Source of the DNA: an uncultured virus (IMG/VR IMGVR_UViG_3300029448_000020)
Lineage: Duplodnaviria; Heunggongvirae; Uroviricota; Caudoviricetes; Crassvirales
Reading direction: 5' to 3' (one strand)
DNA: 20,000 nt
Virus record (IMG/VR): IMGVR_UViG_3300029448_000020
Coordinates: 47,198 to 67,197 of that record
This document shows, piece after piece, positions 6,218 to 20,000 of the stretch. The notes beneath the pieces are model-generated. The model was not told the DNA's origin. It saw only the letters and a list, made by a program, of their open reading frames with translations, and made no database searches. Every line of letters starts with the position of its first letter. Position 1 is the stretch's first letter. The translations under genes were made by a program, and so were the position numbers.

Positions 6218-6584
6218 TGTTGTTATTTTTTTGTTCTTGTTCTTTTTCTAACTCTTTTCTTGCTTTTTTCTGTTTTCTTTTTTGATTTAGGTGTTTTCCT
6301 ATTTTATAAGCTCCATGCGCAAGTGCTATAGTACCTATTGGTCCTTTTGCAAAACGCAACAATGATTTACCAGGTGTTTTTAAAGCTTGAATACCTTTTC
6401 CAACAGCTATAGCACCAGTGGCACCTAAAACTGCTTTTCCAGCAACAGGTGCAGATTTAAATGAATCAACTGCCATGTTAGCTATATGTGGTGCCATTTT
6501 GTAACCAATAGCACCTGTAATCAAATGTTGAGCAATTGATTTAAATGGGGATTTTTTAAGAAATTTTTTACTAAATTTTGACAT
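6207..6584 (-). CDS. Basic hypothetical protein (SP-motif family)
   Basis: 125-aa ORF starting MSKFSKKFLKKSPF, with Gly/Ala-rich amphipathic segments. Confidence 0.65.
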   Translation of the reverse strand: MSKFSKKFLKKSPFKSIAQHLITGAIGYKMAPHIANMAVDSFKSAPVAGKAVLGATGAIAVGKGIQALKTPGKSLLRFAKGPIGTIALAHGAYKIGKHLNQKRKQKKARKELEKEQEQKNNNNDV

Positions 6585-6585
6585 G

Positions 6586-6831
6586 TTATTTATATTGTTC
6601 GTTTTGACTTAATGCAAATTTAGCACCTGCAGATCCTCTTCCGCCTCGAGCTGCTAATGCATGATTTTTAGCTTCAACAGGATCTTGCCCAGCTCTAACT
6701 TCATATGCTGTCATTGGTGATTTTTTTCTACAGCTACCTTTACTATAAGCTTTTTTACCTGGAGTAGGTTCATAACCTTTCCAACATCTAGATTTAGTAA
6801 AAGGACTCCAGCCTGATTGTTCGTATGCCAT
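6586..6831 (-). CDS. Small basic protein with CWKGY motif (SP-motif family)
   Basis: MAYEQSGWSPF...RCWKGYEPTPGKKAYSKGSCRKKSPM. Confidence 0.65.
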   Translation of the reverse strand: MAYEQSGWSPFTKSRCWKGYEPTPGKKAYSKGSCRKKSPMTAYEVRAGQDPVEAKNHALAARGGRGSAGAKFALSQNEQYK

Positions 6832-6836
6832 ACTTT

Positions 6837-7313
6837 TTAATTTTTATCGTATTGCTCGTTACCATAACTACCTGGTCCTGTTTCCATCATTTTTTGTAGC
6901 TCTCTTAGTCTTTTAAGTTCAGCATCTGTAATAGTACCAGCATCTTTTTTAGCCTGTAGCATTTTAACAGTGTCATGAGGTGATTTCTTCTTTATTTTAG
7001 GAACCTTCTTGTCATTCTTCTTCATCATAGGTGAAGTTATTTGTCCCGCGAATCCATGATCTGGATTTGCTTTCATTTCACCTTTAGTTCTCTTCTTCAT
7101 TGGTGAATCTAGGATTTTTTTCTGTAAGTGCTCTGGTAGTTGATCTTGATCACCTACTAAAGGTTTACTCATTGGAGATGCATCATATTGCTGTATTCCA
7201 CCCATAGCTTTAAATGGAAAACCTTCTCCAGTTTTTTTATTAGGACTGTGTTTCATTTTAAAACCACTAGGTTTGCCCATAAAACCGTCAGTATCTTTTT
7301 TAAATGTTGGCAT
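6837..7313 (-). CDS. Lys/Met-rich protein with repeated SP motifs
   Basis: GFKMKHSP, ASPM, DSPM, TSPM and KSPH within 158 aa. Confidence 0.7.
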   Translation of the reverse strand: MPTFKKDTDGFMGKPSGFKMKHSPNKKTGEGFPFKAMGGIQQYDASPMSKPLVGDQDQLPEHLQKKILDSPMKKRTKGEMKANPDHGFAGQITSPMMKKNDKKVPKIKKKSPHDTVKMLQAKKDAGTITDAELKRLRELQKMMETGPGSYGNEQYDKN

Positions 7314-7331
7314 AGTTTTGTTTTTTATTAT

Positions 7332-7733
7332 TTAATATTTATTTTTATGTTTTCCCATTGGAGAAGGGCGTGGTCTGTCTCTATTAACTAAATCACTCAT
7401 TCTTTTTCTATCATCTAATCTATCTAACTCTTGATCTTCCTTCGCCATTTGTCTTCTTTTAGCACTAGCCTCAGGGTTTTCAAGCATTTTCTCAAGATTT
7501 TTTATTTTTCTTTGTTTTCTTGCTATACCTCTAGTTACACCTTTATCTTCTTTTCTTTTTATACCTTTCTTTTTTCTATCAATCTTTTTTTGTAAATATT
7601 CTTTCTCCGCTTCAACATCAACATCTTGCGAAGCATATCTCATTTCTATTTCTCGTTTATCTCGCTGATACTGCATGTCTTTCGCAGAATCAGGTCTACT
7701 AAAAGCTTCAAAACCTCTCATTTTAAATGCCAT
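7332..7733 (-). CDS. Basic coiled-coil protein (MAFKM family)
   Basis: Starts MAFKMRGF and ends PSPMGKHKNKY. Confidence 0.7.
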   Translation of the reverse strand: MAFKMRGFEAFSRPDSAKDMQYQRDKREIEMRYASQDVDVEAEKEYLQKKIDRKKKGIKRKEDKGVTRGIARKQRKIKNLEKMLENPEASAKRRQMAKEDQELDRLDDRKRMSDLVNRDRPRPSPMGKHKNKY

Positions 7734-7751
7734 AATTGTTTTTTTAAATTG

Positions 7752-8123
7752 TTATTCTTTTTCAGCCTGTATTGCTGATTGTTCCCATGGATGATCTGGA
7801 TGTCCCTCAGGTAATCTGCCAGCGGGTCCATCTATAACCTTTTCTCCATCAACTTCTTTTCTAAAGTATATTTTATCTTCCCACATAACCCACTCATCAC
7901 CATACTGTGCTCTTCCAGATTCCATGTCGTTCATGTGTTTGAGTTCGTGTTTTATTGTTTTGTTGTACTTTTCTGTGCCTTCTTTTAATTGAGGATCTAC
8001 AAATATAGTACCATCGTTATTGGCTTCAGCTAAAATACTACCTTCTAAATCTTTTTTTATTATAGGTGTATTTTGTGGGGTACGATATCCTCTTCCTTCA
8101 TTTCCTAGTTTAAATTTAGCCAT
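7752..8123 (-). CDS. Putative zinc metallopeptidase (HExxH)
   Basis: AEANNDGTIFV...IKHELKHMNDM...HPWEQSA: HExxH plus a downstream Glu as possible third ligand. Confidence 0.6.
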   Translation of the reverse strand: MAKFKLGNEGRGYRTPQNTPIIKKDLEGSILAEANNDGTIFVDPQLKEGTEKYNKTIKHELKHMNDMESGRAQYGDEWVMWEDKIYFRKEVDGEKVIDGPAGRLPEGHPDHPWEQSAIQAEKE

Positions 8124-8125
8124 AA

Positions 8126-8989
8126 TTACATATCGTTTTCTTCTCTATAGTTTTCTATAAATTCACTTAATTTTTCAATTTCTTCATCTGTAGGATTACC
8201 TAATGCTTGTCTATCCTCTTCAGTTAAACCACCTTCTTCCTCACTTTTACCAAGAAACTTTTGATATCTTTTGAGTTGCTCCATACCAGTTTCACCCCAC
8301 ACTTTACCAGTTTTTGCTGTATATTGTTCTTTTTCAGCATCTGATTGTTCTCTAAATCCACGTTGAGTTGCTAGTCCTTTTTTCCACTCAGCTAGTGATG
8401 AGTGAACACCGTTGAGATTTAAATCTTTTCCAGAATGTATTTGTCCATCGTTATACATTCTTTCTTTACCCATCCAATCTGTTCCAGATTCTATCCCAAA
8501 TGAATAACCTTTACTTAAATCAAAATTTAATAATGATGCATCACCACCTTTCTGTCTAACTAAATTAGCTTGGTTTCTCATGAACTGTTGGAATTGAGGA
8601 GTATTATATACAGCTTCAAAATGTACACCTTGAGGCCCTGGATGCGATCCTGTTCCACTGGCAGTTGTTCCAGCGGGCGCTTGCATTCTGAATGCTCGCA
8701 TATATAATTCTTCCCCAATACGTTGTTGAGCCATTTGCTCTAATGTTAACTCTGTTGGTTCACCATAACGACCTGGATTATTTATTGAACCAAATCTTTG
8801 CCCGTATTTCCACCACTTAAGTTGTAAGCCGATGCCAGTTTTATTAAGTTTTGGTAACCACTTACCTCTACCAGACTTTTGCATTTGATTCTGGTATTGT
8901 ACATACTCTGCTGCATTTTCTTGTTCAGAAATTTGCATCGGTGAGTCCTTTTTTCGTGGTTTTGGAAAACCTTTTTGCTTATACGCCAT
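8126..8989 (-). CDS. Hypothetical protein (MAFKM family)
   Basis: 287-aa ORF starting MAYKQKGFP...DSPM. Confidence 0.7.
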   Translation of the reverse strand: MAYKQKGFPKPRKKDSPMQISEQENAAEYVQYQNQMQKSGRGKWLPKLNKTGIGLQLKWWKYGQRFGSINNPGRYGEPTELTLEQMAQQRIGEELYMRAFRMQAPAGTTASGTGSHPGPQGVHFEAVYNTPQFQQFMRNQANLVRQKGGDASLLNFDLSKGYSFGIESGTDWMGKERMYNDGQIHSGKDLNLNGVHSSLAEWKKGLATQRGFREQSDAEKEQYTAKTGKVWGETGMEQLKRYQKFLGKSEEEGGLTEEDRQALGNPTDEEIEKLSEFIENYREENDM

Positions 8990-9000
8990 ATTGCTATTGT

Positions 9001-10011
9001 TTATTGTCCAAAAAACTCTCTAATTGGTCTGTCCCAGTCACTAAAGTTTATTTGACTTAAATCTAGGTTTAAACCTTTGCTTTTTTTCTTTTTCTTAACA
9101 TTACCTTCATCTCTTCTTACTGGTTGTGGTCTTGATGGTGATCCATCTCTATCAAAACCTTCAATAGTGTCATCATATCTTAAATTATACTTATCGTAGA
9201 ATTTTTTTCTAGCGTCAGTATTAATCTTTGGAGCATCATCCCATGGTATTTTACCAGTTTTTTCAGGAATTACCTCTCCTCCAGTTATTTTACCTACACT
9301 AACTTTACCTTCTTTTTCACCTGTAAGTTTAGCTTCAGGTAATCTTGTTGGTATTGCGCCTTCACCGCTAGGAATATTTAATAAAAAGTTAGTTAAATCA
9401 GCATTTTTATATTTTCCAAATTCACTTAAGTCTGAAAAACCTTCTTTACCTTCTTTTCCTAAGTAAGCAGCGCCACTAGTCCATCTATTACTATATCCTT
9501 TTCCACTACTTTTAGCTCTAACTCCTTGAAACTCGTTCGGTCTAAGTTCTATTTGAAAATCTCCTTTGTCTTTTGAGCCTTGAGTAGCTTTTAATAAACG
9601 CTCTCTTATTGCTTTATCTTTAGTAGATAAGTTTTTAGGGTTCATGCGTTTTATTTGCTCTATGTCTTCTTGTTTTAAATTGAAAGTTCCACCACCTCTT
9701 GATGAAGCAGTATCTTGGCTTGGAGTAAATTGATCACCTTGAGAGTAATTACCTTGCCAATCATCGCCTGCAAATTCTTTATTATCAAAATAATCACGCT
9801 GTCCTCCTCTAGGAAAAGTATCACCTGATTCATGAGAGTATTCACCACCAGACATAGGAAGTCTTTCACCTGTAATTTTACCGTAATCGTCAATCTCTGT
9901 ACCAGCATAGTCAGATGTACCACTAGCCATCTGCTCTAATTCTATACTCTTATATAAAGTGGGTTTCTTTTTACCATGAAACCCACCATATCCTTTCATT
10001 TTAAAGGCCAT
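9001..10011 (-). CDS. Hypothetical low-complexity protein (MAFKM family)
   Basis: 336-aa Gly/Lys/Asp-rich ORF starting MAFKMKGY. Confidence 0.7.
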   Translation of the reverse strand: MAFKMKGYGGFHGKKKPTLYKSIELEQMASGTSDYAGTEIDDYGKITGERLPMSGGEYSHESGDTFPRGGQRDYFDNKEFAGDDWQGNYSQGDQFTPSQDTASSRGGGTFNLKQEDIEQIKRMNPKNLSTKDKAIRERLLKATQGSKDKGDFQIELRPNEFQGVRAKSSGKGYSNRWTSGAAYLGKEGKEGFSDLSEFGKYKNADLTNFLLNIPSGEGAIPTRLPEAKLTGEKEGKVSVGKITGGEVIPEKTGKIPWDDAPKINTDARKKFYDKYNLRYDDTIEGFDRDGSPSRPQPVRRDEGNVKKKKKSKGLNLDLSQINFSDWDRPIREFFGQ

Positions 10012-10363: not shown

Positions 10364-10807
10364 TTATCCTCTGTCAAATAAAAAGTACTCTAGTGTTCCT
10401 GCTCCGTCAGCGTCAACTGTTAGATCCATTGTGTAATCAAACGGAAAGAAAGCAAATTCACCATCTAATAATGTGAATAATCTTGCTGTATCACCAGAAG
10501 CTGTTAAATCAGCTGCTGAACCACCGTCCGCTACGATACCTACGTGAATACTTCTTGTTGATCCTGTTGTGTTCTTCATGTATACAAAGCAACCTACTGT
10601 ACCTCCAGCACCATCACCACCTGATATTGCGTCACCATCAAGTAATGTTGCTTCTGTTGTACTTACTGTTACTGTTTCAGCTTGTACTTTATCTACAGTC
10701 AGAGTATCTGTTGCAGATAACGACAAAGCTATACTCAACGGTCCTGCATCTGTAGTAGCGGTAGACGCATTAGATGTGAGTGAAAATGTTGGTTTTATTA
10801 CTGCCAT
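10364..10807 (-). CDS. Putative virion structural protein, first gene of the late arm
   Basis: 147-aa Thr/Ala/Gly/Asp-rich beta-type protein (FVYMKN...LLDGEFAFFP). Confidence 0.6.
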   Translation of the reverse strand: MAVIKPTFSLTSNASTATTDAGPLSIALSLSATDTLTVDKVQAETVTVSTTEATLLDGDAISGGDGAGGTVGCFVYMKNTTGSTRSIHVGIVADGGSAADLTASGDTARLFTLLDGEFAFFPFDYTMDLTVDADGAGTLEYFLFDRG

Positions 10808-10829
10808 TTTAATTTATTTTTATTTTTTA

Positions 10830-10857
10830 ATAATTACACGGCTTTTTGCCGTTTTTC
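10830..10857 (-). promoter_or_regulatory. Degenerate class II promoter-like motif GAAAAA-N12-GTGTAATTAT; the spacer is a hairpin
   Basis: Same 12-nt spacing as the copies at 10868-10895 and 19616-19643. On the plus strand, ACGGC-TTTTT-GCCGT followed by Ts could instead be a terminator. Confidence 0.35.
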
Positions 10858-10867
10858 TATATTGTAG

Positions 10868-10895
10868 ATAATCACATGGTAGTATAGATATTTAC
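10868..10895 (-). promoter_or_regulatory. Class II promoter-like motif GTAAAT-N12-ATGTGATTAT
   Basis: Both boxes and the spacer length match the element upstream of the ERF gene; it points into the late arm. Confidence 0.55.
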
Positions 10896-10911
10896 TAATG
10901 TACCGGTACTT

Positions 10912-11004
10912 CCCCCGTATTGTAAATATAGGTATTTTGTCTTACACCCCACTAAAAATACCACCCCATCCCCTGGAAAGTCAATCCTTTTACCCCACTC
11001 CCCC
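10912..11004. other. C-run cluster (G-runs on the minus strand) at the transcription divergence point
   Basis: C4-5 runs at 10912-16, 10947-50, 10964-67, 10970-73, 10993-96 and 11000-04 in an otherwise very AT-rich intergenic region. Confidence 0.7.
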
Positions 11005-11035
11005 AATATATATACAATTTCATTATAATCTTTTC

Positions 11036-11066
11036 ACAAACTAACTACGACTATCATTAGATAATA
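11036..11066 (+). promoter_or_regulatory. Class I bipartite repeat, copy 1
   Basis: ACAAACTAACTACGA-ctatcatt-AGATAATA. Confidence 0.75.
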
Positions 11067-11106
11067 ATAATGTAAGTAAAATATAAATAATATAAATATA
11101 ATACTA

Positions 11107-11137
11107 ACAAACTAAATACGAGAATATATAGATAATA
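11107..11137 (+). promoter_or_regulatory. Class I bipartite repeat, copy 2
   Basis: ACAAACTAAATACGA-gaatatat-AGATAATA. Confidence 0.8.
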
Positions 11138-11160
11138 ATAATAACTAAAATATAATAACT

Positions 11161-11379
11161 ATGACAACTAAAAGATTTGTAATAAGAAAGTCCTTAATAG
11201 GTAAAGACGTAACAATAACATTTGTTAACAAGAAAGGTGAAACAGTAAAGTATAGTCACGACGATGTGTATAACAAGTTCAAAGAAAGATTCGACTCAAT
11301 GAATTGCTTTGCTAAATATAAATCATATACTAATAGTAATGCTATGCCAGCTTTCTGCCGAGATATGAAGATTCAGTAA
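11161..11379 (+). CDS. Hypothetical early protein, paralog A
   Basis: 72 aa, clearly similar to 11861..12094 (KRFV.R.SL.GKD.TI...Y.HD.V...CF.KYKSYT.SN..P). Confidence 0.8.
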   Translation: MTTKRFVIRKSLIGKDVTITFVNKKGETVKYSHDDVYNKFKERFDSMNCFAKYKSYTNSNAMPAFCRDMKIQ

Positions 11380-11386
11380 TATCTCG
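11359..11386 (+). other. Hairpin spanning the paralog A stop codon
   Basis: CGAGATAT ... ATATCTCG 8-bp inverted repeat with no U-tract. Confidence 0.45.
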
Positions 11387-11397
11387 CTACATAATAG

Positions 11398-11446
11398 TGT
11401 GACAATTGCTAGTTACTATATCTTTAGTTATAACGCTAATGTCACA
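11398..11446. repeat. Interrupted palindrome TGTGACA...GCTAATGTCACA, copy 1
   Basis: TGTGACAATTGC-N25-GCTAATGTCACA; second copy at 17725-17771. Confidence 0.7.
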
Positions 11447-11530
11447 GTATAAATAATTAATTTGCGAGTAGAGAAGTGACGAGCAATACGTGTACAAGTA
11501 ATTTATTCATTAAACAATTAATATACTTTT

Positions 11531-11561
11531 ACAAACTAAATACGAAACAGTAAAGATAATA
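11531..11561 (+). promoter_or_regulatory. Class I bipartite repeat, copy 3
   Basis: ACAAACTAAATACGA-aacagtaa-AGATAATA. Confidence 0.8.
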
Positions 11562-11580
11562 ATAATGTAAAACAAATGTA

Positions 11581-11658
11581 ATGGAATTTATAATACTAAC
11601 AACAATTTGGATAATAGTAAAAACTGCTGAGAAATTAGCTAAAATAGAAGAAAGATGA
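11581..11658 (+). CDS. 25-aa putative membrane peptide
   Basis: MEFIILTTIWIIVKTAEKLAKIEER; follows repeat copy 3 and has an ATGA overlap with the next ORF. Confidence 0.5.
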   Translation: MEFIILTTIWIIVKTAEKLAKIEER

Positions 11659-11789
11659 TGAAGTACCTAAGTAAAGATAAAGAACAAAGAATACAACAAA
11701 TTGCGCTAATAATACACAATGCAAGAGTGTATGGCGTTGAAGTAAATCAAGAGTTACTTGATGAATACAACAAGTTAACTAAAGAATAA
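11655..11789 (+). CDS. 44-aa hypothetical protein
   Basis: MMKYLSKDKEQRIQQIALIIHNARVYGVEVNQELLDEYNKLTKE; fills the gap up to repeat copy 4. Confidence 0.55.
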   Translation: MMKYLSKDKEQRIQQIALIIHNARVYGVEVNQELLDEYNKLTKE

Positions 11790-11801
11790 TTGTGAGTCGT
11801 C

Positions 11802-11832
11802 ACAATATAAATACGAACAAGTGTAGATAATA
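11802..11832 (+). promoter_or_regulatory. Class I bipartite repeat, copy 4
   Basis: ACAATATAAATACGA-acaagtgt-AGATAATA. Confidence 0.75.
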
Positions 11833-11860
11833 TAAATGTAAATAAATAAAATTAATAATT

Positions 11861-12094
11861 ATGACTAATAATGTAATTCAAAGCAAGAGATTTGTGGTAA
11901 GACAATCACTTGTTGGCAAAGATGCCACTATAAATGTAACATTCAAAAATGGCAAAACTGCGACTTATAATCACGACAAAGTGTTTGCTATCATGAAAGA
12001 TAAGTTACAAGAAATGCCATGCTTTATCAAGTACAAGTCGTACACGGCGAGTAATAACCTACCAATGATGGTAAGAGATAAAGATATCGCCTAA
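11861..12094 (+). CDS. Hypothetical early protein, paralog B
   Basis: 77 aa, similar to 11161..11379. Confidence 0.8.
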   Translation: MTNNVIQSKRFVVRQSLVGKDATINVTFKNGKTATYNHDKVFAIMKDKLQEMPCFIKYKSYTASNNLPMMVRDKDIA

Positions 12095-12285
12095 TGCGTA
12101 GTAAGAAGTTTAGCCACTTCGAAGTATTTAAAGCAGTAATAACAACTCTTTACATCACAAGTGGCATTCTTATGTTTAGTACACTGATAAGTAATGCGTC
12201 ACAAATGTACAAACAAGTAGAAGTAATAGATTCTTATTCAGGAGCAACAATGTATAGTTGCGAGAACTGTGACGAAATAGATTAA
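12094..12285 (+). CDS. Small membrane protein with C-terminal CxxC
   Basis: One hydrophobic helix (AVITTLYITSGILMFSTLI) and a terminal SCENCDEID; TAATG coupling. Confidence 0.65.
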   Translation: MRSKKFSHFEVFKAVITTLYITSGILMFSTLISNASQMYKQVEVIDSYSGATMYSCENCDEID

Positions 12286-12295
12286 GTTATACAAA

Positions 12296-12452
12296 ACCAC
12301 TAATGAAGTGCTGAGTAACTAGTGGTAACTTGAGACGTAGTTGACTACATTTAGCGTCTTATAAATAATGCGAATGAGTAATACAAGGTAGAAAGGCGGC
12401 TGTAGTCCTCTCCGAGTGATGACAATCAAGTGGTTCGAGTCCACAACTACCA
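12296..12452 (+). ncRNA. Putative structured RNA ending in a degenerate tRNA-like element
   Basis: Stems ACCACTA/TAGTGGT (12296-12326) and AGACG/CGTCT (12333-12359); T-arm GTGG-TTCGAGT-CCAC (12430-12444); GGTAG/CTACC acceptor-like pairing (12387-12451). Confidence 0.45.
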
Positions 12453-12454
12453 CT

Positions 12455-12715
12455 ATGAATATAGATAATATAATGAGAAATACGTTCGCTGTCGTGACTA
12501 ATCGATGCGGAGTAGAAGATATTCTTGAATTGTATACAGGTGAAGATGCTATGTTTTATGGCAATCCACTCGATATGCAAGTAGAAGATATTGATGAAGT
12601 AATAAACTACTTCGAAAATACCGAAGAATACGAGAATTGCCAACAGTTACTTGACGTTAAAAATGACAAAGTAGCAGAAGTTTTAACTAAAAAATTGATA
12701 AGAGATGAACTATAA
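12455..12715 (+). CDS. Hypothetical acidic protein with UVR-like EEYENC motif
   Basis: Start moved to ATG 12455, after the tRNA-like element; contains INYFENTEEYENCQQL. Confidence 0.65.
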   Translation: MNIDNIMRNTFAVVTNRCGVEDILELYTGEDAMFYGNPLDMQVEDIDEVINYFENTEEYENCQQLLDVKNDKVAEVLTKKLIRDEL

Positions 12716-12803
12716 TATAAAAGATGAAGAATATAATCAAGAACAATTTGATTATTACAACAGTTACTTAGAAGATCAAGTGGATATTAATATAAATATG
12801 TAA
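12705..12803 (+). CDS. 32-aa acidic peptide
   Basis: MNYNIKDEEYNQEQFDYYNSYLEDQVDININM; fills the gap between two ORFs exactly. Confidence 0.45.
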   Translation: MNYNIKDEEYNQEQFDYYNSYLEDQVDININM

Positions 12804-12805
12804 GT

Positions 12806-13081
12806 ATGAATAAGAAATTATTATTTATAATAGGTTTTGCGGCAAGTTTAAACGCCGCTTGCCAAACCACCTCAACTAATAAAAAAGCTGATAGTTACCA
12901 TAAATGTATAGTAATGAAGTGTGGTAGTGAGATAGATAAGTGTAAAACAATCGCTGGAATTTTAACACCATTTTGTGATAAGCATATAGAAATGATAAGA
13001 AACAACAAAGTTTTAGATGTGTGTAGTGGATGTTACAAGCGATATGTAGATAAATGTAAAGAATTAACATATGAGAAATAA
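12806..13081 (+). CDS. Cys-rich exported protein or lipoprotein
   Basis: Signal peptide MNKKLLFIIGFAASLNAAC followed by multiple Cys residues. Confidence 0.6.
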   Translation: MNKKLLFIIGFAASLNAACQTTSTNKKADSYHKCIVMKCGSEIDKCKTIAGILTPFCDKHIEMIRNNKVLDVCSGCYKRYVDKCKELTYEK

Positions 13082-13358
13082 ATTAATAATAGCTAGTGTA
13101 GCTCTTGGTGGACTAGTAAATGCACAGTGTAATTACAAGTGTGGTTACAATCAAGACGAGAATGGTAATACTGTTCACCTTGAGCAATGTAATGAGTATA
13201 AAAAAATTAAAAAAGACAAATCTCTTGATTTAATTTATAATAGAAAAATACCTTTATACACAAAACCTAATGGACCTATAACTCCGTTAGTTAAATCAAA
13301 GTGGATGGAAAAACTAGTAATGACTTTGGAATATGGTGACACCAACATGGTCGAGTAG
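13071..13358 (+). CDS. Exported protein with signal peptide
   Basis: MRNKLIIASVALGGLVNA|QC: V-x-A cleavage site with Gln at +1, typical of Bacteroidota. Confidence 0.6.
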   Translation: MRNKLIIASVALGGLVNAQCNYKCGYNQDENGNTVHLEQCNEYKKIKKDKSLDLIYNRKIPLYTKPNGPITPLVKSKWMEKLVMTLEYGDTNMVE

Positions 13359-13422
13359 CTTAACTGGATAAAGCAACAGCCTTCTAAGCTGTAGAGTGTG
13401 AGTTCGACTCTCACCTCGATCA
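13349..13422 (+). tRNA. tRNA-Arg (anticodon UCU), CCA not encoded
   Basis: Acceptor GGTCGAG/CTCGATC; D-arm GCTT-AACTGGATA-AAGC; anticodon arm ACAGC-CTTCTAA-GCTGT; T-arm GTGAG-TTCGACT-CTCAC. Confidence 0.95.
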
Positions 13423-13452
13423 CAAATTAAATACGACAACTCGTAGATAATA
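13422..13452 (+). promoter_or_regulatory. Class I bipartite repeat, copy 5
   Basis: ACAAATTAAATACGA-caactcgt-AGATAATA; begins at the tRNA discriminator base. Confidence 0.8.
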
Positions 13453-13459
13453 TAAATAT

Positions 13460-13672
13460 ATGAAATGTAAATGTAAAAAAAATATAATACCAAAAGGACG
13501 TTTGCGACTCGGTTTTAGAGTATGCGTTGAGTGTTCAACTGTCGAAAGATACGGTTGTGCTCCAGTCATTAACCATAAGACAGGCAACACTATTCAAATT
13601 ATGTCGCAAGAAGACGCTAAACGCATAGCTAAACTGACTCGTAGACGTGGATATGGTACAATGCTTAAATAA
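13460..13672 (+). CDS. DksA/TraR-like C4 zinc-finger protein
   Basis: CKCKKNIIPKGRLRLGFRVCVECS resembles the C..C...IP..RL......C..C pattern of DksA/TraR fingers, with CxC as the first pair. Confidence 0.55.
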   Translation: MKCKCKKNIIPKGRLRLGFRVCVECSTVERYGCAPVINHKTGNTIQIMSQEDAKRIAKLTRRRGYGTMLK

Positions 13673-13679
13673 TAAATAT

Positions 13680-13883
13680 ATGAATAGAATTAAAATACTT
13701 AAAAACGGGAACTTAGTAATGACTAAGTCAGATGTAGAAATAACTTATAGACCATACAAGGTTGGTGATTTACCAAAAGACTTTGGCTGTATAGAATATA
13801 AAAGACCAAGTGGCAAGCTAAGAGATGGTATTGACAACTGGTTCAAGTACAAAGGTTTAACTTACGTAGCTATTACAAAATAA
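13680..13883 (+). CDS. Hypothetical protein
   Basis: Likely start MNRIKILK at 13680; the stop codon lies inside repeat copy 6. Confidence 0.7.
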   Translation: MNRIKILKNGNLVMTKSDVEITYRPYKVGDLPKDFGCIEYKRPSGKLRDGIDNWFKYKGLTYVAITK

Positions 13884-13905
13884 ATACGACAAGTAACAGA
13901 TAATA
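13875..13905 (+). promoter_or_regulatory. Class I bipartite repeat, copy 6
   Basis: ACAAAATAAATACGA-caagtaac-AGATAATA. Confidence 0.8.
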
Positions 13906-13910
13906 ATAAT

Positions 13911-14030
13911 ATGAAAATACAACGAAAAGACATACAAACAAGAGATCCTTACTGGAAAGTAGCGTCATTCAAGCGTATTCATAAGAGTAAAAAGACTTAT
14001 ACTCGTAAAAATAAGCATAAAAATAAATAA
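13911..14030 (+). CDS. 39-aa basic ArfA-like peptide
   Basis: MKIQRKDIQTRDPYWKVASFKRIHKSKKTYTRKNKHKNK; not in the ORF track; ATG lies 5 nt after repeat copy 6. Confidence 0.55.
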   Translation: MKIQRKDIQTRDPYWKVASFKRIHKSKKTYTRKNKHKNK

Positions 14031-14033
14031 TAT

Positions 14034-14618
14034 ATGACAAAAGTAAAAACAATGGAAGAAGCATACCGAGTATTTGAACTACTTGGTATTAAAGATGTCA
14101 CGAAAAAGTGGCAAAAGAAACAAGGTACTGAAGTATTTGAGTTGCCATTTAAAACTATGTGCTACAACGGTCAAGCAGAAACTAATAGATTCTCGATCTA
14201 CAAAAGTGGTTATATACGTAAAATGGTAGTTCATCCAACTAGTAATGCAAGTTATAGTTGCTATCAACTAAATAAAACTCGCAAATCTGATGAGTATTTC
14301 AAAGATTATGACTACGATGGCAAGTGGACAGGTAAATATCGTAAAAGCAACAGAACAGAGCGAATTATGATAGATACTCACAGAGATCGAGTAGTATATT
14401 TATGTAATTACATACTAAAAAATTACTATAATAGTAATAAAATGAACTTAGTTGGCGAATATACTATGAAAAGAGTAGCAGAAGTACATGGCGAATGGTG
14501 GAGAAACGAAAGAAAACACGACGAGTGGCCATTTGAAGATGTAAAAAGAAACGATGTAGACTACGAACCTAAAGAAGTTCAAATAATAATTGACGGACAC
14601 CGTTATAAAGTAATATAA
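14034..14618 (+). CDS. Hypothetical protein
   Basis: 194-aa ORF with no motif I recognise. Confidence 0.8.
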   Translation: MTKVKTMEEAYRVFELLGIKDVTKKWQKKQGTEVFELPFKTMCYNGQAETNRFSIYKSGYIRKMVVHPTSNASYSCYQLNKTRKSDEYFKDYDYDGKWTGKYRKSNRTERIMIDTHRDRVVYLCNYILKNYYNSNKMNLVGEYTMKRVAEVHGEWWRNERKHDEWPFEDVKRNDVDYEPKEVQIIIDGHRYKVI

Positions 14619-14619
14619 A

Positions 14620-14871
14620 ATGATAGAAGAATTAAAAGATTTAGAACAAGAAGCGATGGATGAGTTAACGCCTGAAGACTATATGGCAATCACCTCTAAT
14701 GTAATGGACGACTATGATCGACCAATATACCAAAGTGGCTACATAGATGGCTTACAAACAGCTATAAGAATGCTTAGTAGTGATGATACTACCATGAGTT
14801 ATACAATGGAGATTGATGAGATGTTTGGTGAGGACTATGCTAAAGTAGATGAAGACGAAGACACAAAATAA
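14620..14871 (+). CDS. Highly acidic hypothetical protein
   Basis: 83 aa, Asp/Glu-rich; the stop codon lies inside repeat copy 7. Confidence 0.7.
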   Translation: MIEELKDLEQEAMDELTPEDYMAITSNVMDDYDRPIYQSGYIDGLQTAIRMLSSDDTTMSYTMEIDEMFGEDYAKVDEDEDTK

Positions 14872-14893
14872 ATACGATTGCTTCAAGATAATA
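14863..14893 (+). promoter_or_regulatory. Class I bipartite repeat, copy 7
   Basis: ACAAAATAAATACGA-ttgcttca-AGATAATA. Confidence 0.8.
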
Positions 14894-14914
14894 ATAATAT
14901 AAAAAATAAATAAT

Positions 14915-15115
14915 ATGCCAAATATGAGTTACTGTAGGTTTGAAAACACTACAATAGATATAGATGATTGCTTAGCTGCGATACAAGATTCTCACGAAGA
15001 ATGTGCTGATTTAAGTAGACGTGAGGTGCAAGCTTTACAAAGATTACTAGAACAAGCAGAAGAAATAGTAGATTTATCGCATGATATTGAACAAATAATA
15101 GAAAAATATAACTAA
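14915..15115 (+). CDS. Conserved phage hypothetical protein (MSYCRFENT type)
   Basis: N-terminal NMSYCRFENT motif that I recall from small proteins of many phages. Confidence 0.75.
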   Translation: MPNMSYCRFENTTIDIDDCLAAIQDSHEECADLSRREVQALQRLLEQAEEIVDLSHDIEQIIEKYN

Positions 15116-15129
15116 AAATAACTCAAAAA

Positions 15130-15534
15130 TGCGGGGCGAGGGACGTGTAGAACTTAAAGATGGGGTTAATCCGTTTGGACACCTCGGTTCATCTAACCTT
15201 CTTGCCGCAGTGACCTGACTATATCTATGTATAAAGATGAGGTTGGTCACACGTGAACTAGGTGGTTCAATGTAGGATAAAGCATTCAAGGGAGTGGGAG
15301 CGAAATCTCCAGTTAACTATAAACTACTCGGTCTTGATGGTACCACACCTACAGTTCACAACAGCTTGAAATGGACAAAACAGGGTGATACGCACCGCGT
15401 AATTTGCCTGACGAGGTGGGAGGTTCGATTCCTCCCCAAGCTGCAAGATATGTGCCTAAATGTGAAATTCATAGCAAGGTCGCAAGTACCTGCAGAAGGC
15501 TTGTATGGATAGAGTTAAAGCCTCTATACATATC
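15130..15534 (+). ncRNA. Putative ~405-nt multi-domain structured RNA or ncRNA cluster, including a tRNA-like domain
   Basis: Five back-to-back closed stems: TGCGG/CCGCA, GTGACC/GGTCAC, GTGAACT/AGTTCAC, CAGCTTG/CAAGCTG (with T-arm GGAGG-TTCGATT-CCTCC) and GATATGT/ACATATC. GC content is higher than in the flanks. Confidence 0.65.
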
Positions 15535-15565
15535 ACAAACTAAATACGAATAAAGTAAGATAATA
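15535..15565 (+). promoter_or_regulatory. Class I bipartite repeat, copy 8
   Basis: ACAAACTAAATACGA-ataaagta-AGATAATA. Confidence 0.8.
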
Positions 15566-15570
15566 AATAC

Positions 15571-15804
15571 ATGAAAACAATATACGATAGACTCACACCA
15601 GATATTCTGGCGAGTATAAACAATGACGAACAAAGATATCCTTTTACAACTAAAGCTCTTAAAATAAAGCTTAAGTCTAGTGATGACTGGTCACAGTTAT
15701 CTGTAGGTGATGTTCAATCAATAATAACACATTCTCATATAAGATTAATTGACGTAGATCAAGCAGATTTAATGTGGGGTGATAAATTTTTAATAAGTAA
15801 GTAA
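15571..15804 (+). CDS. Hypothetical protein
   Basis: 77-aa ORF starting 5 nt after repeat copy 8. Confidence 0.7.
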   Translation: MKTIYDRLTPDILASINNDEQRYPFTTKALKIKLKSSDDWSQLSVGDVQSIITHSHIRLIDVDQADLMWGDKFLISK

Positions 15805-15872
15805 TGATAATACCAAAAATACTAATATGCTATATAATTATTTTTATAATAGCTGTAAAATATAAAAAATGA
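15804..15872 (+). CDS. 22-aa putative single-TM peptide
   Basis: MIIPKILICYIIIFIIAVKYKK; TAATG overlap upstream and ATGA overlap downstream. Confidence 0.5.
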   Translation: MIIPKILICYIIIFIIAVKYKK

Positions 15873-16081
15873 GTAAAAAATTAAAAGATGGAGTCTACAA
15901 GGCTCAAAATGGAAGTGATAAAATTATGTACTTTGTACACGATGAGTTAATTGTTATGCAGTGGAAACACGGAACATTCAAAACTAATACTAACTTTATG
16001 TTAGGTGCTAAATGGGTTGAATCATTACCAATGTCAAAAGGTGAATTTATAAAAGGTTATAATCAATTAAAATCGTGGTAA
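15869..16081 (+). CDS. Hypothetical protein
   Basis: 70-aa ORF within the operon. Confidence 0.7.
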   Translation: MSKKLKDGVYKAQNGSDKIMYFVHDELIVMQWKHGTFKTNTNFMLGAKWVESLPMSKGEFIKGYNQLKSW

Positions 16082-16082
16082 A

Positions 16083-16499
16083 ATGGCAACAAGAGCAAAA
16101 ATACATATAGCTAGGCGTGAAGAAGGAGTATCGTTTAGTGACATACCGGAGAAAGTTATGGTAAGTATTTATAATCATTGGGATGGTTACCCTGAAGGAT
16201 TAGGTGTGAAATTAGCCTCTTATCTTGATGATTTTGTAATAACAAATGGCTTAAGTAGAGACAATGAGTATGTCTTCAATGGATTAGGCTGCATGGCGGC
16301 TTCAATTATAGAACATTTAAAAGATGGTCCAGGAAACGTGTATATAGAAGATCCAGAACGTCCTCACACTTGGATAGATTATGATTATTACGTATGGGGT
16401 GATGACCATAAAGATATATGGATTAGTATATTTGATGGATCTGAGTGTATATTTGTAGGAAAACCAAAAGCTTTATTAAGTAAATACTACACAAACTAA
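16083..16499 (+). CDS. Conserved phage protein (MATR...HWDGYP type)
   Basis: MATRAKI...SIYNHWDGYPEGLG...DYDYYV; the stop codon lies inside repeat copy 9. Confidence 0.75.
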   Translation: MATRAKIHIARREEGVSFSDIPEKVMVSIYNHWDGYPEGLGVKLASYLDDFVITNGLSRDNEYVFNGLGCMAASIIEHLKDGPGNVYIEDPERPHTWIDYDYYVWGDDHKDIWISIFDGSECIFVGKPKALLSKYYTN

Positions 16500-16521
16500 A
16501 TACGACGACCTATGGATAATA
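16491..16521 (+). promoter_or_regulatory. Class I bipartite repeat, copy 9
   Basis: ACAAACTAAATACGA-cgacctat-GGATAATA. Confidence 0.8.
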
Positions 16522-16798
16522 TAAAAGATGAAAATTTAAAACGATTAGGCAGATTTATAGCTGAAGGATTAATGGATTTAGCAAAATACACAGACAAAGA
16601 AAACTGGATGGAAGAGAATATGAGAGACCATATGATCGGTGAGTTAGCACGCTGTGTCACATTGCAAAATTTATATCTNNNNNNNNNNAGTTTGAGAAAT
16701 GTGCTATAATGAAAATAAGAATAATGGAATTAACAGATAAATTAGATTTAGAAATTGATTCCGATTTAACAAATTTAGATAAAGATGATGAGGAATAA
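16512..16798 (+). CDS. Hypothetical protein interrupted by an assembly gap (start uncertain)
   Basis: After the N run (16679-16688) another frame reads FEKCAIMKIRIMELTDKLDLEIDSDLTNLDKDDEE-stop (16798), which is probably the true C-terminus. Confidence 0.55.
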
Positions 16799-17630
16799 AC
16801 CAATGTTAGCTTACCCAGTAAGCGCAAAACCAATAGACTATAATAAACCAGTATTTATACAACCAAAGCTTGACGGCGTGCGTTGTCTAATACAGTGTGA
16901 TAATGGCAAGATAACTGCGTATTCACGTAATAATAAAGAGTGGAAAAATATCGACCATATACTTTTTAATCTCAAGCCATTCTTTCACTGGAATCCAAAT
17001 GTTGTGCTTGACGGTGAATTGTATAATCATGACTTTAAAGATGATTTTGAACAAATCATATCTATGGTCAGAAAAACAAAACCAACTGACGAGGCACGTG
17101 CTAAATCAGCTGAAAACGTACAATTTCATTGTTATGATATTGTAAACAAAAAGATGAAGTTTAGCACGCGTAGCAAGTGGATTGAAGGTAATTTACAATC
17201 AAATCATTGTATACGCCTAGTACCAACAAGTAAAGTCACTGCTGAACCAGCTGCTAAAATGACACATAAAATTAATTTAACAAATGGTTACGAAGGTTCT
17301 ATTGTAAGACTAGACACACCTTACCAATGTAAAAGGTCTCATAGTCTTAGAAAATTCAAAGATTTCAGCGATGCTGAAGCTAACATTGTAGGTTACGAAG
17401 AAGGTAAAGGTAAAAGAGTCGGCACGCTGGGTAAGTTTATAATGCAAGATGATGATGGTAACCAGTTCGGTTGTCCACCAGGTAAAGGTCATAATTATAA
17501 AGATCTTGCAAAAATGCTTATCGAGATCCATAAATATATGGGTCAGCGTGCTACCTTTACATATTTCGAACGAACAAAAGCAGGTAGTTACAGACATCCA
17601 CTATATAAATGTATAAGAAATTATGAATAA
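16785..17630 (+). CDS. ATP-dependent DNA ligase (minimal NTase + OB domains)
   Basis: Motif I QPKLDGVR, III LDGELY, IIIa FHCYD, IV EGSIVR, V LRKFK; N-terminal KPMLA; C-terminal YRHP. Confidence 0.95.
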   Translation: MMRNKPMLAYPVSAKPIDYNKPVFIQPKLDGVRCLIQCDNGKITAYSRNNKEWKNIDHILFNLKPFFHWNPNVVLDGELYNHDFKDDFEQIISMVRKTKPTDEARAKSAENVQFHCYDIVNKKMKFSTRSKWIEGNLQSNHCIRLVPTSKVTAEPAAKMTHKINLTNGYEGSIVRLDTPYQCKRSHSLRKFKDFSDAEANIVGYEEGKGKRVGTLGKFIMQDDDGNQFGCPPGKGHNYKDLAKMLIEIHKYMGQRATFTYFERTKAGSYRHPLYKCIRNYE

Positions 17631-17745
17631 AAGATTAATATTAAAAATCCTAAAGCAAAACGAAATTAATAGATATAATAAAAATAATTCTAAAAGAATT
17701 ATTATAGGAACGTTAAAACCAATATGTGACAAAAGCCTCAAATAA
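17623..17745 (+). CDS. 40-aa basic peptide
   Basis: MNKRLILKILKQNEINRYNKNNSKRIIIGTLKPICDKSLK; overlaps the ligase stop. Confidence 0.4.
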   Translation: MNKRLILKILKQNEINRYNKNNSKRIIIGTLKPICDKSLK

Positions 17746-17771
17746 TATATTAATAAGGGGCTAATGTCACA
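17725..17771. repeat. Interrupted palindrome TGTGACA...GCTAATGTCACA, copy 2
   Basis: TGTGACAAAAGC-N23-GCTAATGTCACA, ending 11 nt before the ATG of the HTH gene. Confidence 0.7.
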
Positions 17772-17782
17772 AATAGAACTAT

Positions 17783-18403
17783 ATGGACAGAAGATTTAAG
17801 TATTTATGGAATAAACATGTTGTTTATAGAAGAGATCCTATAACTGATATACCAGACGAAGAAACAGATACATATATGTTTTATAAGAATGGTACATACC
17901 AGTGTTATGACTTGTTTAGAAGTAAAGCAAAAATCACAACATGGAAATCATTTTATTGGCACATGATGGTGCTGTGGCATTTAAACCCAGAGTGGGAAGA
18001 TGCTGATGCAATGGAAATAGCTACATACTTAGCATGGAAACCTAATGGTTTTACTACGTTTACTATGAATAAATGGAATATAGCTAGATTAGTATATGAA
18101 GTTTCTGTGCTAGATCTTGAAGAGCCTCCACGTAATAAACTTAGAAAGATTATATTTAAACCACAATGTGGATTAGATAAATCTGAAAAACTAAGCATTG
18201 TTGGTAAGTTAATAGGTAGGATTAATGGTGTAAATAAAGAAGATATTTATAGTAGCATGTTATTAATGAATGACAGTGACGAAAAGATAACTATAGCTAA
18301 ACTAGCTAAGAGCTTAAAGTGTACACCAAGAACTATACATAGGCGAATGTGTAGAGAGTTAAAACAAGTAAAAGAAGAATTAAATGAAGAGATTAATATA
18401 TGA
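17783..18403 (+). CDS. DNA-binding protein with C-terminal HTH
   Basis: KITIAKLAKSLKCTPRTIHRRM is a clear helix-turn-helix; the N-terminal domain is not recognised. Confidence 0.65.
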   Translation: MDRRFKYLWNKHVVYRRDPITDIPDEETDTYMFYKNGTYQCYDLFRSKAKITTWKSFYWHMMVLWHLNPEWEDADAMEIATYLAWKPNGFTTFTMNKWNIARLVYEVSVLDLEEPPRNKLRKIIFKPQCGLDKSEKLSIVGKLIGRINGVNKEDIYSSMLLMNDSDEKITIAKLAKSLKCTPRTIHRRMCRELKQVKEELNEEINI

Positions 18404-18491
18404 CCTGTACTATGCAGATGAGATAACACAGGATGTAGCTATAAAGCTATTAGATAAATGGACTGAAAACTATAATAAAAGAAAATACTAA
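18384..18491 (+). CDS. 35-aa hypothetical protein
   Basis: MKRLIYDLYYADEITQDVAIKLLDKWTENYNKRKY; its stop abuts the denV ATG. Confidence 0.55.
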   Translation: MKRLIYDLYYADEITQDVAIKLLDKWTENYNKRKY

Positions 18492-18851
18492 ATGACCAGA
18501 ATAAATGTAGGAATACCACCAGCTGAATTAACAGACAAGCACTTACTAGCTGAGCATAGAGAAATAAAACGTATACCAAATTGCATAGCTAAAGGTAAGT
18601 ACAATATGGAAGGTATACCAGACACATTTAAATTAGGTACAGGACATGTTAAGTTCTTTTACGATAAGTTATATTATCTTTTAATGAGATATATGAAGCT
18701 ATACGTTGAGTGTAAAAATAGAGGATTTAATGTACAATGTTACGCTGAAGCATGGAAAGGTTTACCTAAAGAATTAATGAATAATTATCAACCAACATAT
18801 ATGGATAGAAAAATAGTAAAACAAAGAATTAATGAAAAATTAAACAAATGA
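18492..18851 (+). CDS. denV: Pyrimidine dimer DNA glycosylase / endonuclease V
   Basis: MTRIN...L.DKHLLAEHREIKRI...FKLGTGHVKFFYDKL...RGF matches T4 endonuclease V, including the catalytic Thr2 and Glu. Confidence 0.93.
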   Translation: MTRINVGIPPAELTDKHLLAEHREIKRIPNCIAKGKYNMEGIPDTFKLGTGHVKFFYDKLYYLLMRYMKLYVECKNRGFNVQCYAEAWKGLPKELMNNYQPTYMDRKIVKQRINEKLNK

Positions 18852-19606
18852 AAAAATATCACGTACAAAATTATGTAAGATGGAAACACGACATGGCAGA
18901 TTCTTTAAAAAGAATACCAGATAGACCATATCACGAATTAAGTAGAGACGAATTAATAACTAAGTTTTTACCATTAGTAGAAAGTTTAGCTAGAAAGTTT
19001 TCAACATCACAACAAGCTAGCGGTGTTATGAGTATAATGGATATTATACAAGAAGGTAATTTAGGTTTGTGTGCTGGTGTTGATAGAATAGAGTGGGACA
19101 CAATACTAGAAGCTGAAGATCAAAGCAAGAGGTTGAAATCATTTCTATCTAAAAGAATAAAAGGAGCAATACGTAGAGGCATTGACACGAACAGAGGTAG
19201 CATGCGTATACCAGAGCATAAGCTAAATGAAATACGAAAAGACTTTGGTGAAGATCGTAAAATGGTTGAATTGTTTTTTAATTCAGTGTTTACAAGTCTA
19301 GATGCTGGAACACAAGAGCAACAAAACGCAGCGTATAATATACCAGATAATATAAAAGGTTATAATAAAGAGTTATTAGCAGCATATATAAAATCATTAA
19401 TGCTCCAATATTTAAACCCAAAAGAGTTTCAAGTTCTTAGATTATCTTATGGACTTGATTGTGATAAGATGTCTGCTAAAGAAATAGCTGAAGTTTTAGG
19501 TATAAAAGGCACTAGCTCTTACGTACGTATTTCACAGTTAAAAAAGCAAGCAATTGATAAACTTATTGATAACGTTGAGCACTCGCAAGTGGTTGATTAC
19601 CTGTAA
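18848..19606 (+). CDS. RNA polymerase sigma-70 family factor
   Basis: Region 2: LPLVESLARKF...DIIQEGNLGL...RIKGAIRR...MRIPEH. Region 4: VLRLSYGL...MSAKEIAEVLG...RISQLKKQAIDKL. Confidence 0.9.
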   Translation: MKKYHVQNYVRWKHDMADSLKRIPDRPYHELSRDELITKFLPLVESLARKFSTSQQASGVMSIMDIIQEGNLGLCAGVDRIEWDTILEAEDQSKRLKSFLSKRIKGAIRRGIDTNRGSMRIPEHKLNEIRKDFGEDRKMVELFFNSVFTSLDAGTQEQQNAAYNIPDNIKGYNKELLAAYIKSLMLQYLNPKEFQVLRLSYGLDCDKMSAKEIAEVLGIKGTSSYVRISQLKKQAIDKLIDNVEHSQVVDYL

Positions 19607-19615
19607 GTTACTAAT

Positions 19616-19643
19616 GTAAATTATTAATTCTATATGTGATTAT
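19616..19643 (+). promoter_or_regulatory. Class II promoter-like motif GTAAAT-N12-ATGTGATTAT
   Basis: Lies between the sigma and ERF genes; same boxes and spacing as 10868-10895 on the minus strand. Confidence 0.55.
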
Positions 19644-19668
19644 ATATATAGACCAAAACCAATAGACC

Positions 19669-20000
19669 ATGAAGAATTTAAATAAAAAATTAGCCGTCAT
19701 ACAGACAGAGCTAAAAGCAAAAAAGTCTTCGTATAATTCTTTCGGTAAATATTATTTCCGAAAGGCCGAAGACATACTCGAGGCAGTAAAGCCTTTCTTA
19801 TTAAGGGAAAGTGTATCAGTTAGAGTTGACGAAGAGTTGATTCATGATACACCTCCTGTAATTCAATCAACAGCCACAATTTCTGATGGCGAAAATTCAA
19901 TACAAGCAAAAGCAATAGTCGGCGTAGACCTTAATCAAAAAGGTATGCAAACGGCACAACAATTTGGAGCAGCTTCATCTTACGGGAAAAAGTATGCATT
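19669..20000 (+). CDS. ERF-family single-strand annealing protein (partial, runs off the window end)
   Basis: Not in the ORF track. MKNLNKKLAVIQTELKAKKSSYNSFGKYYFRKAEDILEAVKP...KGMQTAQQFGAASSYGKKYA carries the ERF G.A.SY..KY motif. Confidence 0.88.
   Translation, partial: MKNLNKKLAVIQTELKAKKSSYNSFGKYYFRKAEDILEAVKPFLLRESVSVRVDEELIHDTPPVIQSTATISDGENSIQAKAIVGVDLNQKGMQTAQQFGAASSYGKKYA

Follow-up and report, generated by a model that had tools for sequence, protein, structure and literature searches.

A 20,000-nucleotide stretch of DNA from an uncultured virus (IMG/VR record IMGVR_UViG_3300029448_000020, positions 47,198 to 67,197), here called the window, forms the last 20 kb of a 67,197-bp contig (source genome G000) and carries nine copies of a 31-bp repeat, here termed class E, in which two conserved halves flank a variable spacer. 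We are highly confident that these repeats are a real early promoter, shared by a whole phage family and of a type other than the host's. An earlier note on this DNA had proposed a phage-specific early promoter, and the proposal is upheld by the geometry, orientation, position and family-wide conservation of the copies, the transcription start being a predicted one. A sigma-like module within a large late polyprotein is put forward, tentatively, as the factor that reads it.

The nine starts claimed in the earlier note (11036, 11107, 11531, 11802, 13422, 13875, 14863, 15535 and 16491) were all verified. Every copy lies on the plus strand with a spacer of 8 nt, the nine spacers all differ, and 200 shuffles gave an expectation of 0.00 matches. 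The consensus holds for copies 2–9, but copy 1 carries one mismatch, a C for A at motif position 10. With the 8-nt spacer the core occurs nine times in the 67,197-bp contig and with spacers of 4–7 or 9–13 nt not once, and a weight matrix run over both strands reached at least 10 bits at these nine copies only; as had been stated for the late arm, the rest of the contig holds no further copy.

An exact motif scan of IMG/VR gave at least 200 matches. The family sample comprised 35 of 40 records, picked from 80 sigma-related loci and rebuilt (some with gaps), which together with G000 made 36 genomes, and the search across the contig and related phages that had been suggested as a check revealed conservation throughout the family. 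Each genome carries 2–11 copies, all in the early or middle arm, with 259 on the strand of the sigma gene and 1 on the opposite strand. This sole opposite-strand site (G003:C1:38811) stands back to back with the first copy of its genome and points toward the late arm, an arrangement repeated in G065.

Of 246 sites selected without use of the downstream columns, 98% have a purine at motif position 37 and 80% a pyrimidine-purine step (YR) at positions 36–37, compared with at most 84% purine and 62% YR in the neighbouring columns; the logo columns of the core are set by the search pattern and hence are no evidence. The purine is no start-codon artefact, because position 37 is A in 48% of sites and because the ATG found at positions 35–37 in copies 1, 3 and 4 is followed immediately by a stop codon. 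With position 37 taken as +1, the motif consists of an upstream box at -36 to -22, a free spacer at -21 to -14 and GATAAT at -12 to -7, and thus contains a sigma70-type -10 hexamer, its A at -11 and its T at -7, with a YR start 6 nt farther on. The claim that the motif lacks -35/-10 spacing is therefore correct in part only, since the -10/+1 geometry of the downstream half is exactly that of sigma70. Also of the sigma70 type are the single orientation (259 versus 1) and the position directly 5' of genes, an ATG lying within 40 nt of the predicted +1 in 217 of 282 cases and within 3 nt in 57. Each copy stands at the head of a short unit of small genes, which in all probability it would transcribe. 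Three lead-gene families lie directly 3' of a class E promoter at nearly all or most of their scored junctions (family 0 at 26 of 27, family 2 at 23 of 28 and family 3 at 21 of 25), and gene turnover is located deeper inside each unit.

The +1 positions of the individual copies in the window are predicted from this family-wide geometry. Copy 1, with its one mismatch, occupies 11036–11066 (predicted +1 at 11072), and copy 2 (11107–11137, +1 at 11143) lies 5' of a 72-aa lead gene at 11161–11379. Copy 3 (11531–11561, +1 at 11567) is followed by copy 4 (11802–11832, +1 at 11838), which precedes a paralogue of that lead gene at 11861–12094. No other lead gene is as common in the early array as these paralogous genes of ∼75 aa, which occur in 27 genomes with up to three copies each and gave no match in Pfam and PHROG searches; their product is a candidate takeover or activator protein. 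Copy 5 (13422–13452, +1 at 13458, ATG at 13460) begins on the final base of tRNA-Arg(TCT) (13349–13423, plus strand), the 3' end of which falls at 13422/13423, in line with the adjacency described earlier. Likewise as described, the TAA of the motif is the stop codon of an upstream open reading frame (ORF) at 13883, 14871 and 16499: copy 6 (13875–13905) closes ORF 13647–13883, copy 7 (14863–14893, +1 at 14899) closes ORF 14620–14871, and copy 9 (16491–16521, +1 at 16527) closes ORF 16083–16499. The predicted start of copy 6 at 13911 is the A of an ATG, and that of copy 8 (15535–15565) at 15571 is the start codon of ORF 15571–15804, so that both transcripts would be leaderless. A stem said to precede copy 8 was located 5' of it, but the hairpin is weak (-9.2 kcal/mol). 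Copy 9 is the final class E site ahead of the ligase, helix-turn-helix (HTH), denV and sigma genes.

The earlier note had further suggested that the repeat may also act as a recombination junction in the manner of PeSL elements, which are described in the text of PMC4122927 as composite terminator-promoter repeats bounding indels. Neither adjacency breaks nor hairpins proved to be enriched at the motif. Comparison of the gene content between repeats in relatives (40 genomes) revealed that adjacency was kept at 0.51 of promoter junctions (n = 130) versus 0.54 of plain junctions (n = 353, p = 0.73), in a test with mechanical gene calls, singleton genes excluded and genomes of mixed distance, which leaves room for rare events between close strains. 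Hairpins upstream of class E were at background (41/285 versus 318/2400). A repeat that serves chiefly as a recombination junction (PeSL-like or site-specific) or as an operator, with no promoter function, could draw on the private variants present in every copy of some genomes (TACAA-like in G007, AATAATA in G025, ACGTA in G028 and G031), which concerted evolution could yield, on the encoded Erf annealing protein and on the motif TAA, which stops the upstream ORF in 44 of 285 cases. We nevertheless consider it very improbable, given that breakpoints and stem-loops are unenriched, spacers seldom recur (269 kinds among 326 contexts), the motif is non-palindromic and no integrase or site-specific recombinase family was matched among about 80 ORFs scanned; a junction would also leave the fixed +1 purine unexplained.

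Comparison with host promoters agreed with the earlier note in that class E is unlike the Bacteroidota TAnnTTTG promoter, the box of which (-12 to -5) is missing from the consensus. TAnnTTTG occurs near 24 of 253 class E sites versus 264 of 3336 background positions, and a host-type promoter lies between the last class E site and the sigma gene in 1 of 35 genomes. A reverse-strand host promoter was dismissed on inspection, as its box, TA-n-TTTG, lacks one base of the host box. The promoter motifs of Flavobacterium psychrophilum described in the text of PMC9723704 comprise TAnnTTTG variants, sigma54, TAnnTTGY and a CGT box, and class E resembles none of those. A scan of 185,579 genomes returned 55 stretches that match class E, mainly on short or phage-like contigs. 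Four Flavobacteriales genomes with a chromosomal match hold 1–2 matches each (at 2 mismatches) versus 0–1 for the control, and a fifth genome searched holds 18, on phage-like contigs. So far as is known, then, class E is not a host promoter, the real hosts being uncultured and their promoters unmapped.

Near-perfect single class E promoters were also seen in host-chromosome context in three marine Flavobacteriales metagenome-assembled genomes (MAGs; L395:1501–1531, L397:1501–1531 and L410:1501–1531). One lies 5' of a TerB-domain gene. The other two precede copies of a single short ORF remnant, each at its own locus, and one of these two has an HTH_17 gene nearby; the three sites may possibly mark infection-triggered defence or satellite cassettes.

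Middle promoters of phage T4 are read by a host holoenzyme redirected by an activator. By analogy, the host holoenzyme, with its primary or an alternative sigma, might read class E, either alone or redirected by an injected activator bound to the box near -29. A conserved host reader would account for an invariant -10 alongside a fast-evolving polyprotein, the single sites in the three MAGs fit it, and the early promoters of phage 7-11 are read by host sigma70 according to the text of PMC8948821. We judge it unlikely, since no F. psychrophilum motif in the text of PMC9723704 resembles class E and since host genomes hold only 1–2 matches each, the 55 stretches among 185,579 genomes being mostly small phage-like contigs.

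The phage encodes a sigma factor of its own. A stand-alone phage sigma70-family factor of 252 aa with regions 2 and 4 is encoded at 18848–19606 on the plus strand (PHROG 351, E = 1.9e-23; Pfam Sigma70_r4 and r2), downstream of the class E array. A tblastn search against GenBank phages gave one weak match for it. Of 35 motif-picked records, 32 contain this free sigma, and G062, G065 and G076 were rejected as genomes without it, as their contigs end in that region. GTAACTA-like words are enriched upstream of late genes and belong to a second promoter class, here termed class L, with the motif (G/T)TAAAT-N13-TGTRAYTATA, which has TG at positions -15/-14 and, in 87% of cases, a +1 purine. Spacer lengths peak at 13 nt (44 versus 5–12 at other lengths), and the 36 genomes contain 128 matches versus 11 in shuffled sequence, 84 of these within 150 nt of a gene start, with a matrix trained on the same genomes. 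In the window one class L promoter, GTAAAT-N13-TGT-GATTAT, lies at 19616–19643 (plus strand, 27.4 bits), directly after the sigma stop and 5' of the Erf gene, and another at 10868–10895 (minus strand, 21.6 bits) heads the late arm, divergent from copy 1. Of 35 genomes, 27 have a class L site after the sigma stop and 1 has such a site in the interval from the final early promoter to the sigma gene; class L also heads the ribonucleotide reductase region and the operon whose end is the polyprotein. The simplest reading is that class L is read by the free sigma, which leaves the early class without a reader.

Class E should not be read by the host primary sigma, and the gene of the free sigma lies downstream of the class E sites, so some factor has to enter along with the DNA. 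The earlier note had named a phage or virion RNA polymerase or a modified host enzyme; no polymerase was detected, and the evidence points toward the host core with a sigma-type factor. The contig search suggested there, for a virion RNA polymerase or a site-specific recombinase, matched no family among the roughly 80 ORFs. Pfam, PHROG and motif scans for a virion RNA polymerase were blank, with only about 350 of the 2963 polyprotein residues having been folded, and D-x-D-x-D candidates for a polymerase motif in the large proteins turned out to be acidic stretches only.

The polyprotein in question, of 2963 aa, is encoded outside the window on the minus strand (G000:C1 15544–24435), at the end of the virion block. 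It contains an HExxH motif at 1085–1089, with H1085, E1086 and H1089 present in 88% of 72 rows, and behind this peptidase-like domain sits a module of ∼375 aa composed of a sigma region-2 domain and a second domain of ∼210 aa. Conserved serines flank the module at 1247 (86% of 72 rows) and 1621 (94%) and may be cleavage sites. In profile searches of the PDB with the module, sigma factors come out on top (8b3z, E = 0.0036–0.009), the NCBIfam sigma70-ECF family gave a weak match (E = 2.8e-4) in 3 of 26 members, and Atlas places it in a Sigma70_r2 cluster at 0.93. In a model with a predicted local distance difference test score (pLDDT) of 78, the top eight VIA rows are all sigma factors (Z 9.6–7.2), the best having a root mean squared deviation of 3.2 over 80 residues and a Z of 9.6, which is modest for a helical bundle. 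Foldseek with the whole module returned nothing from the PDB at E ≤ 0.001 and one family member only from BFVD. Taken together, the profiles and the model show that the module carries the sigma region-2 fold. Aromatic residues occupy two positions in 99% and 97% of 237 rows, respectively, and we take these positions to be equivalent to the A-11 pocket of sigma70. The second domain folds confidently (pLDDT 87) but has no structural match in Foldseek PDB or VIA (best Z 3.4, no region 4 row), which does not imply a new fold.

Prediction of a complex between the module and residues 235–350 of beta-prime from F. johnsoniae, as a stand-in host, gave a score of 0.71 versus 0.00 for the best control, with contacts agreeing at 73% or more between runs and a partner pLDDT of at least 79. 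The mark for such a score is reached by 116 of 157 solved pairs and 2 of 215 mismatched pairs; as sigma and beta-prime are a textbook-like pair, however, a passing score says more about resemblance to a known pair than about binding. In the predicted complex, the module docks on the beta-prime clamp helices via its region 2.2 helix.

The module is present in 35 of the 36 genomes, G006 having no polyprotein match, and a filtered search detected it in 29 of 35 motif-picked records. It also occurs in 845 clusters at 50% identity. It was also detectable in six of six further genomes, in two of these weakly. G048, G049 and G056 were rejected as module-free since diverged copies are present; G047, G073 and G077 are seemingly without the module in the filtered search. 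Neither the polyprotein nor the module has a relative among GenBank phages by tblastn, and the polyprotein has no PHROG match either.

That this module is the reader of class E appears feasible, although we rate the chance as somewhat below even. The polyprotein would be packaged and then ejected, and the module would be cut free from it. Region 2 would dock on host beta-prime and open the -10, with the second domain replacing region 4 and binding the upstream box. Early genes, the free sigma included, would then be made, and the free sigma would subsequently fire the class L promoters of the replication and virion genes. Packaging, cleavage, DNA binding and transcription are what we infer here, the analysis itself having shown both motifs, where they lie, the sigma-2 fold and its occurrence in nearly all genomes.

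Several observations weigh against the module as reader. It has no Pfam sigma match, hhalign of the module against the free sigma gave a probability of 0.2%, and the virion location of the polyprotein is deduced from gene position alone. The module shares only ∼21% identity between genomes, is mosaic and differs greatly in region 2.3–2.4, whereas GATAATA is essentially invariant; the free sigma, in contrast, averages 60% identity with invariant residues in regions 2.4 and 4.2. Motif variants track phylogeny (r = 0.69 with GroEL, 0.57 with TerL and 0.44 with the free sigma) and not region 2 of the module (0.09, p = 0.12). Tree-based covariation gave the second domain a partial r of 0.36 (p = 0.001, 25 genomes), but this fell to 0.15 (p = 0.08) and 0.10 (p = 0.16) with new alignments and controls, a re-run in which the tail muzzle (0.29) and the free sigma (0.21) equalled or beat it. 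As the three covariation analyses disagree, no reader is assigned from covariation. Classes E and L, moreover, have a similar -10 core, so that one sigma could read both.

A second candidate is the free sigma (18848–19606), which might read both E and L, being either packaged or bootstrapped by weak transcription and then autoregulated, while the polyprotein sigma-2 domain would be a decoy or a core-binding inhibitor that displaces host sigma. Besides the shared -10 core, this is favoured by its recognition residues, which are invariant in the family (K102, R103, I104, G106, R109 and R110; V226, R227 and S229), as is the -10, by its presence in 32 of 35 motif-picked records, the three misses being contigs cut there, and by a partial r of 0.21 (p = 0.037) with the motif. 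Its region 2.4 is presumably like that of sigma28. The text of 10.1101/2020.01.02.893370 gives C-13 G-12 ATAAN-7 as the pattern read by sigma28, which GATAAT fits, and CGATAATA is common in relatives. We hold this candidate to be rather unlikely. Upstream elements of E and L are of unequal length and offset by ∼3 nt relative to the -10, and an earlier covariation run gave the free sigma a partial r of only 0.15 (p = 0.14). In G007 all nine copies have changed from TACGA to TACAA or similar and the region 4.2 helix is unchanged. No host-type promoter precedes the free sigma in 34 of 35 genomes, and as its gene lies downstream of E, a bootstrap would be required.

The freshwater relative MW202828 has the same layout, but profile searches found class E, the free sigma and the module all absent. 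Their joint absence ties class E to the sigma pair without separating the two factors. The 3859-aa polyprotein of this relative matched no family. Fifteen copies of the palindrome GTGTCGTTAACGACAC stand ahead of its early genes, in the place of class E (L436:12845–24269).

The genome is of podophage type with two divergent arms, and the window encodes terminase, GroES/GroEL, ligase, denV, the sigma70-family gene (18848–19606) and Erf. The terminase is 37% identical to those of Flavobacterium, Cellulophaga and Tenacibaculum phages and 58% identical to that of a freshwater uncultured phage. Class E phages are a common group of uncultured Flavobacteriia-type podophages with marine flavobacteria as hosts. 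A C-run-rich tract at 10905–11010, weakly conserved in relatives, separates the arms and is possibly near a genome end or origin. A run of small late-arm proteins at 5885–10011 has similar N-terminal ends of the MAFKMKG/MAYKQKG kind, which recur in other parts of the late arm and are possibly a packaging tag. The inverted repeat TGTGACA-N32..35-TGTCACA occurs at 11398–11446 and 17725–17771 and in 17 of the 36 genomes, usually directly 5' of the HTH gene (at 17783 in the window), and could be a terminator, attenuator or operator. Rfam matched tRNA-Arg alone over 10800–20000. Two tRNA-like elements (15362–15444 and 12387–12452) with acceptor-like and T-arm stems were missed by ARAGORN and Rfam, and parts of them are kept in a few close relatives. 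A long GC-rich hairpin at 15130–15209 (-26.5 kcal/mol), 3' of ORF 14915–15115, starts a 420-nt gene-poor stretch.

The family thus poses a puzzle, namely an early promoter that host sigma should not read in a phage without detectable RNA polymerase. The full scenario is that the phage ejects a polyprotein releasing its own sigma-like factor, that this factor, in which region 2 is joined by an unrelated DNA-binding domain that takes over from region 4, reprograms the host core at entry to a private early promoter before the free sigma runs the late programme, and that the promoter may also be present in some host chromosomes or satellites, there acting as a switch triggered by infection. Taken as a whole it is possible, if on balance doubtful. 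If true, early transcription would have a third route besides the host holoenzyme and virion RNA polymerase, namely a cascade of two sigmas that starts from the virion. Should the module be the reader, the strategy would be an undescribed one and would supply Bacteroidota, a group with few expression tools, with an orthogonal pair of sigma and promoter. In any case, the two promoter classes map transcription across the whole genome and serve as a sequence marker of a family of abundant predators of marine flavobacteria, of which no cultured member matches the polyprotein. Multi-copy early promoters and phage sigma cascades are already known kinds; a literature search that covered sources outside subscription journals and supplements found no account of the motif or of a virion-borne sigma, and the text of PMC7824862 deals with stand-alone phage sigmas only.

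Several known systems are close to this one, virion RNA polymerases among them. In the crAss-like phage phi14:2, gp66 is reportedly such an enzyme. Like N4 virion RNA polymerase (vRNAP) and gp66, the polyprotein is a giant protein whose gene closes the virion block of a phage with multi-copy, phage-specific early promoters; it differs in having no detected polymerase family or catalytic motif, and with its sigma-2 fold it would borrow the host core. The N4 vRNAP is ejected to start transcription (text of PMC13434306). Polyvalent proteins with metallopeptidase (MPTase) domains (Iyer et al. 2017, PMC5512222) are similarly very large and multidomain, with an HExxH peptidase-like domain and variable cargo, and the present protein, with its zincin-like peptidase domain and the zeta-toxin-like kinase domains carried as variable cargo by its relatives, shows these features. 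Sigma is never mentioned in the main text of that work, however, and no Pfam polyvalent-protein family was matched here. In T4-like phages, the PeSL elements (text of PMC4122927) are also repeated early promoters among small variable genes; class E differs from them in having no terminator stem-loop and no gene-order breaks enriched at the repeat. The group 2 putative Flavobacteriaceae phages (Nishimura et al. 2017, PMC5332604) share GroEL, a sigma-70 gene and a terminase related to those of Cellulophaga and Flavobacterium podophages, and by gene content the present phage probably belongs to that group, although the promoter motif and polyprotein module are undescribed in its text. Finally, the sigma cascades of Salmonella phage 7-11 (gp47) and phiEco32 (gp36) likewise place a stand-alone sigma on the host core to read bipartite late promoters of its own. 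In 7-11, host sigma70 reads the early promoters and the phage sigma the late ones, with a consensus of GTAAtg-(16)-aCTA that resembles class L (text of PMC8948821), whereas here the early promoter is non-host-like and a second, sigma-like module resides in the late polyprotein.

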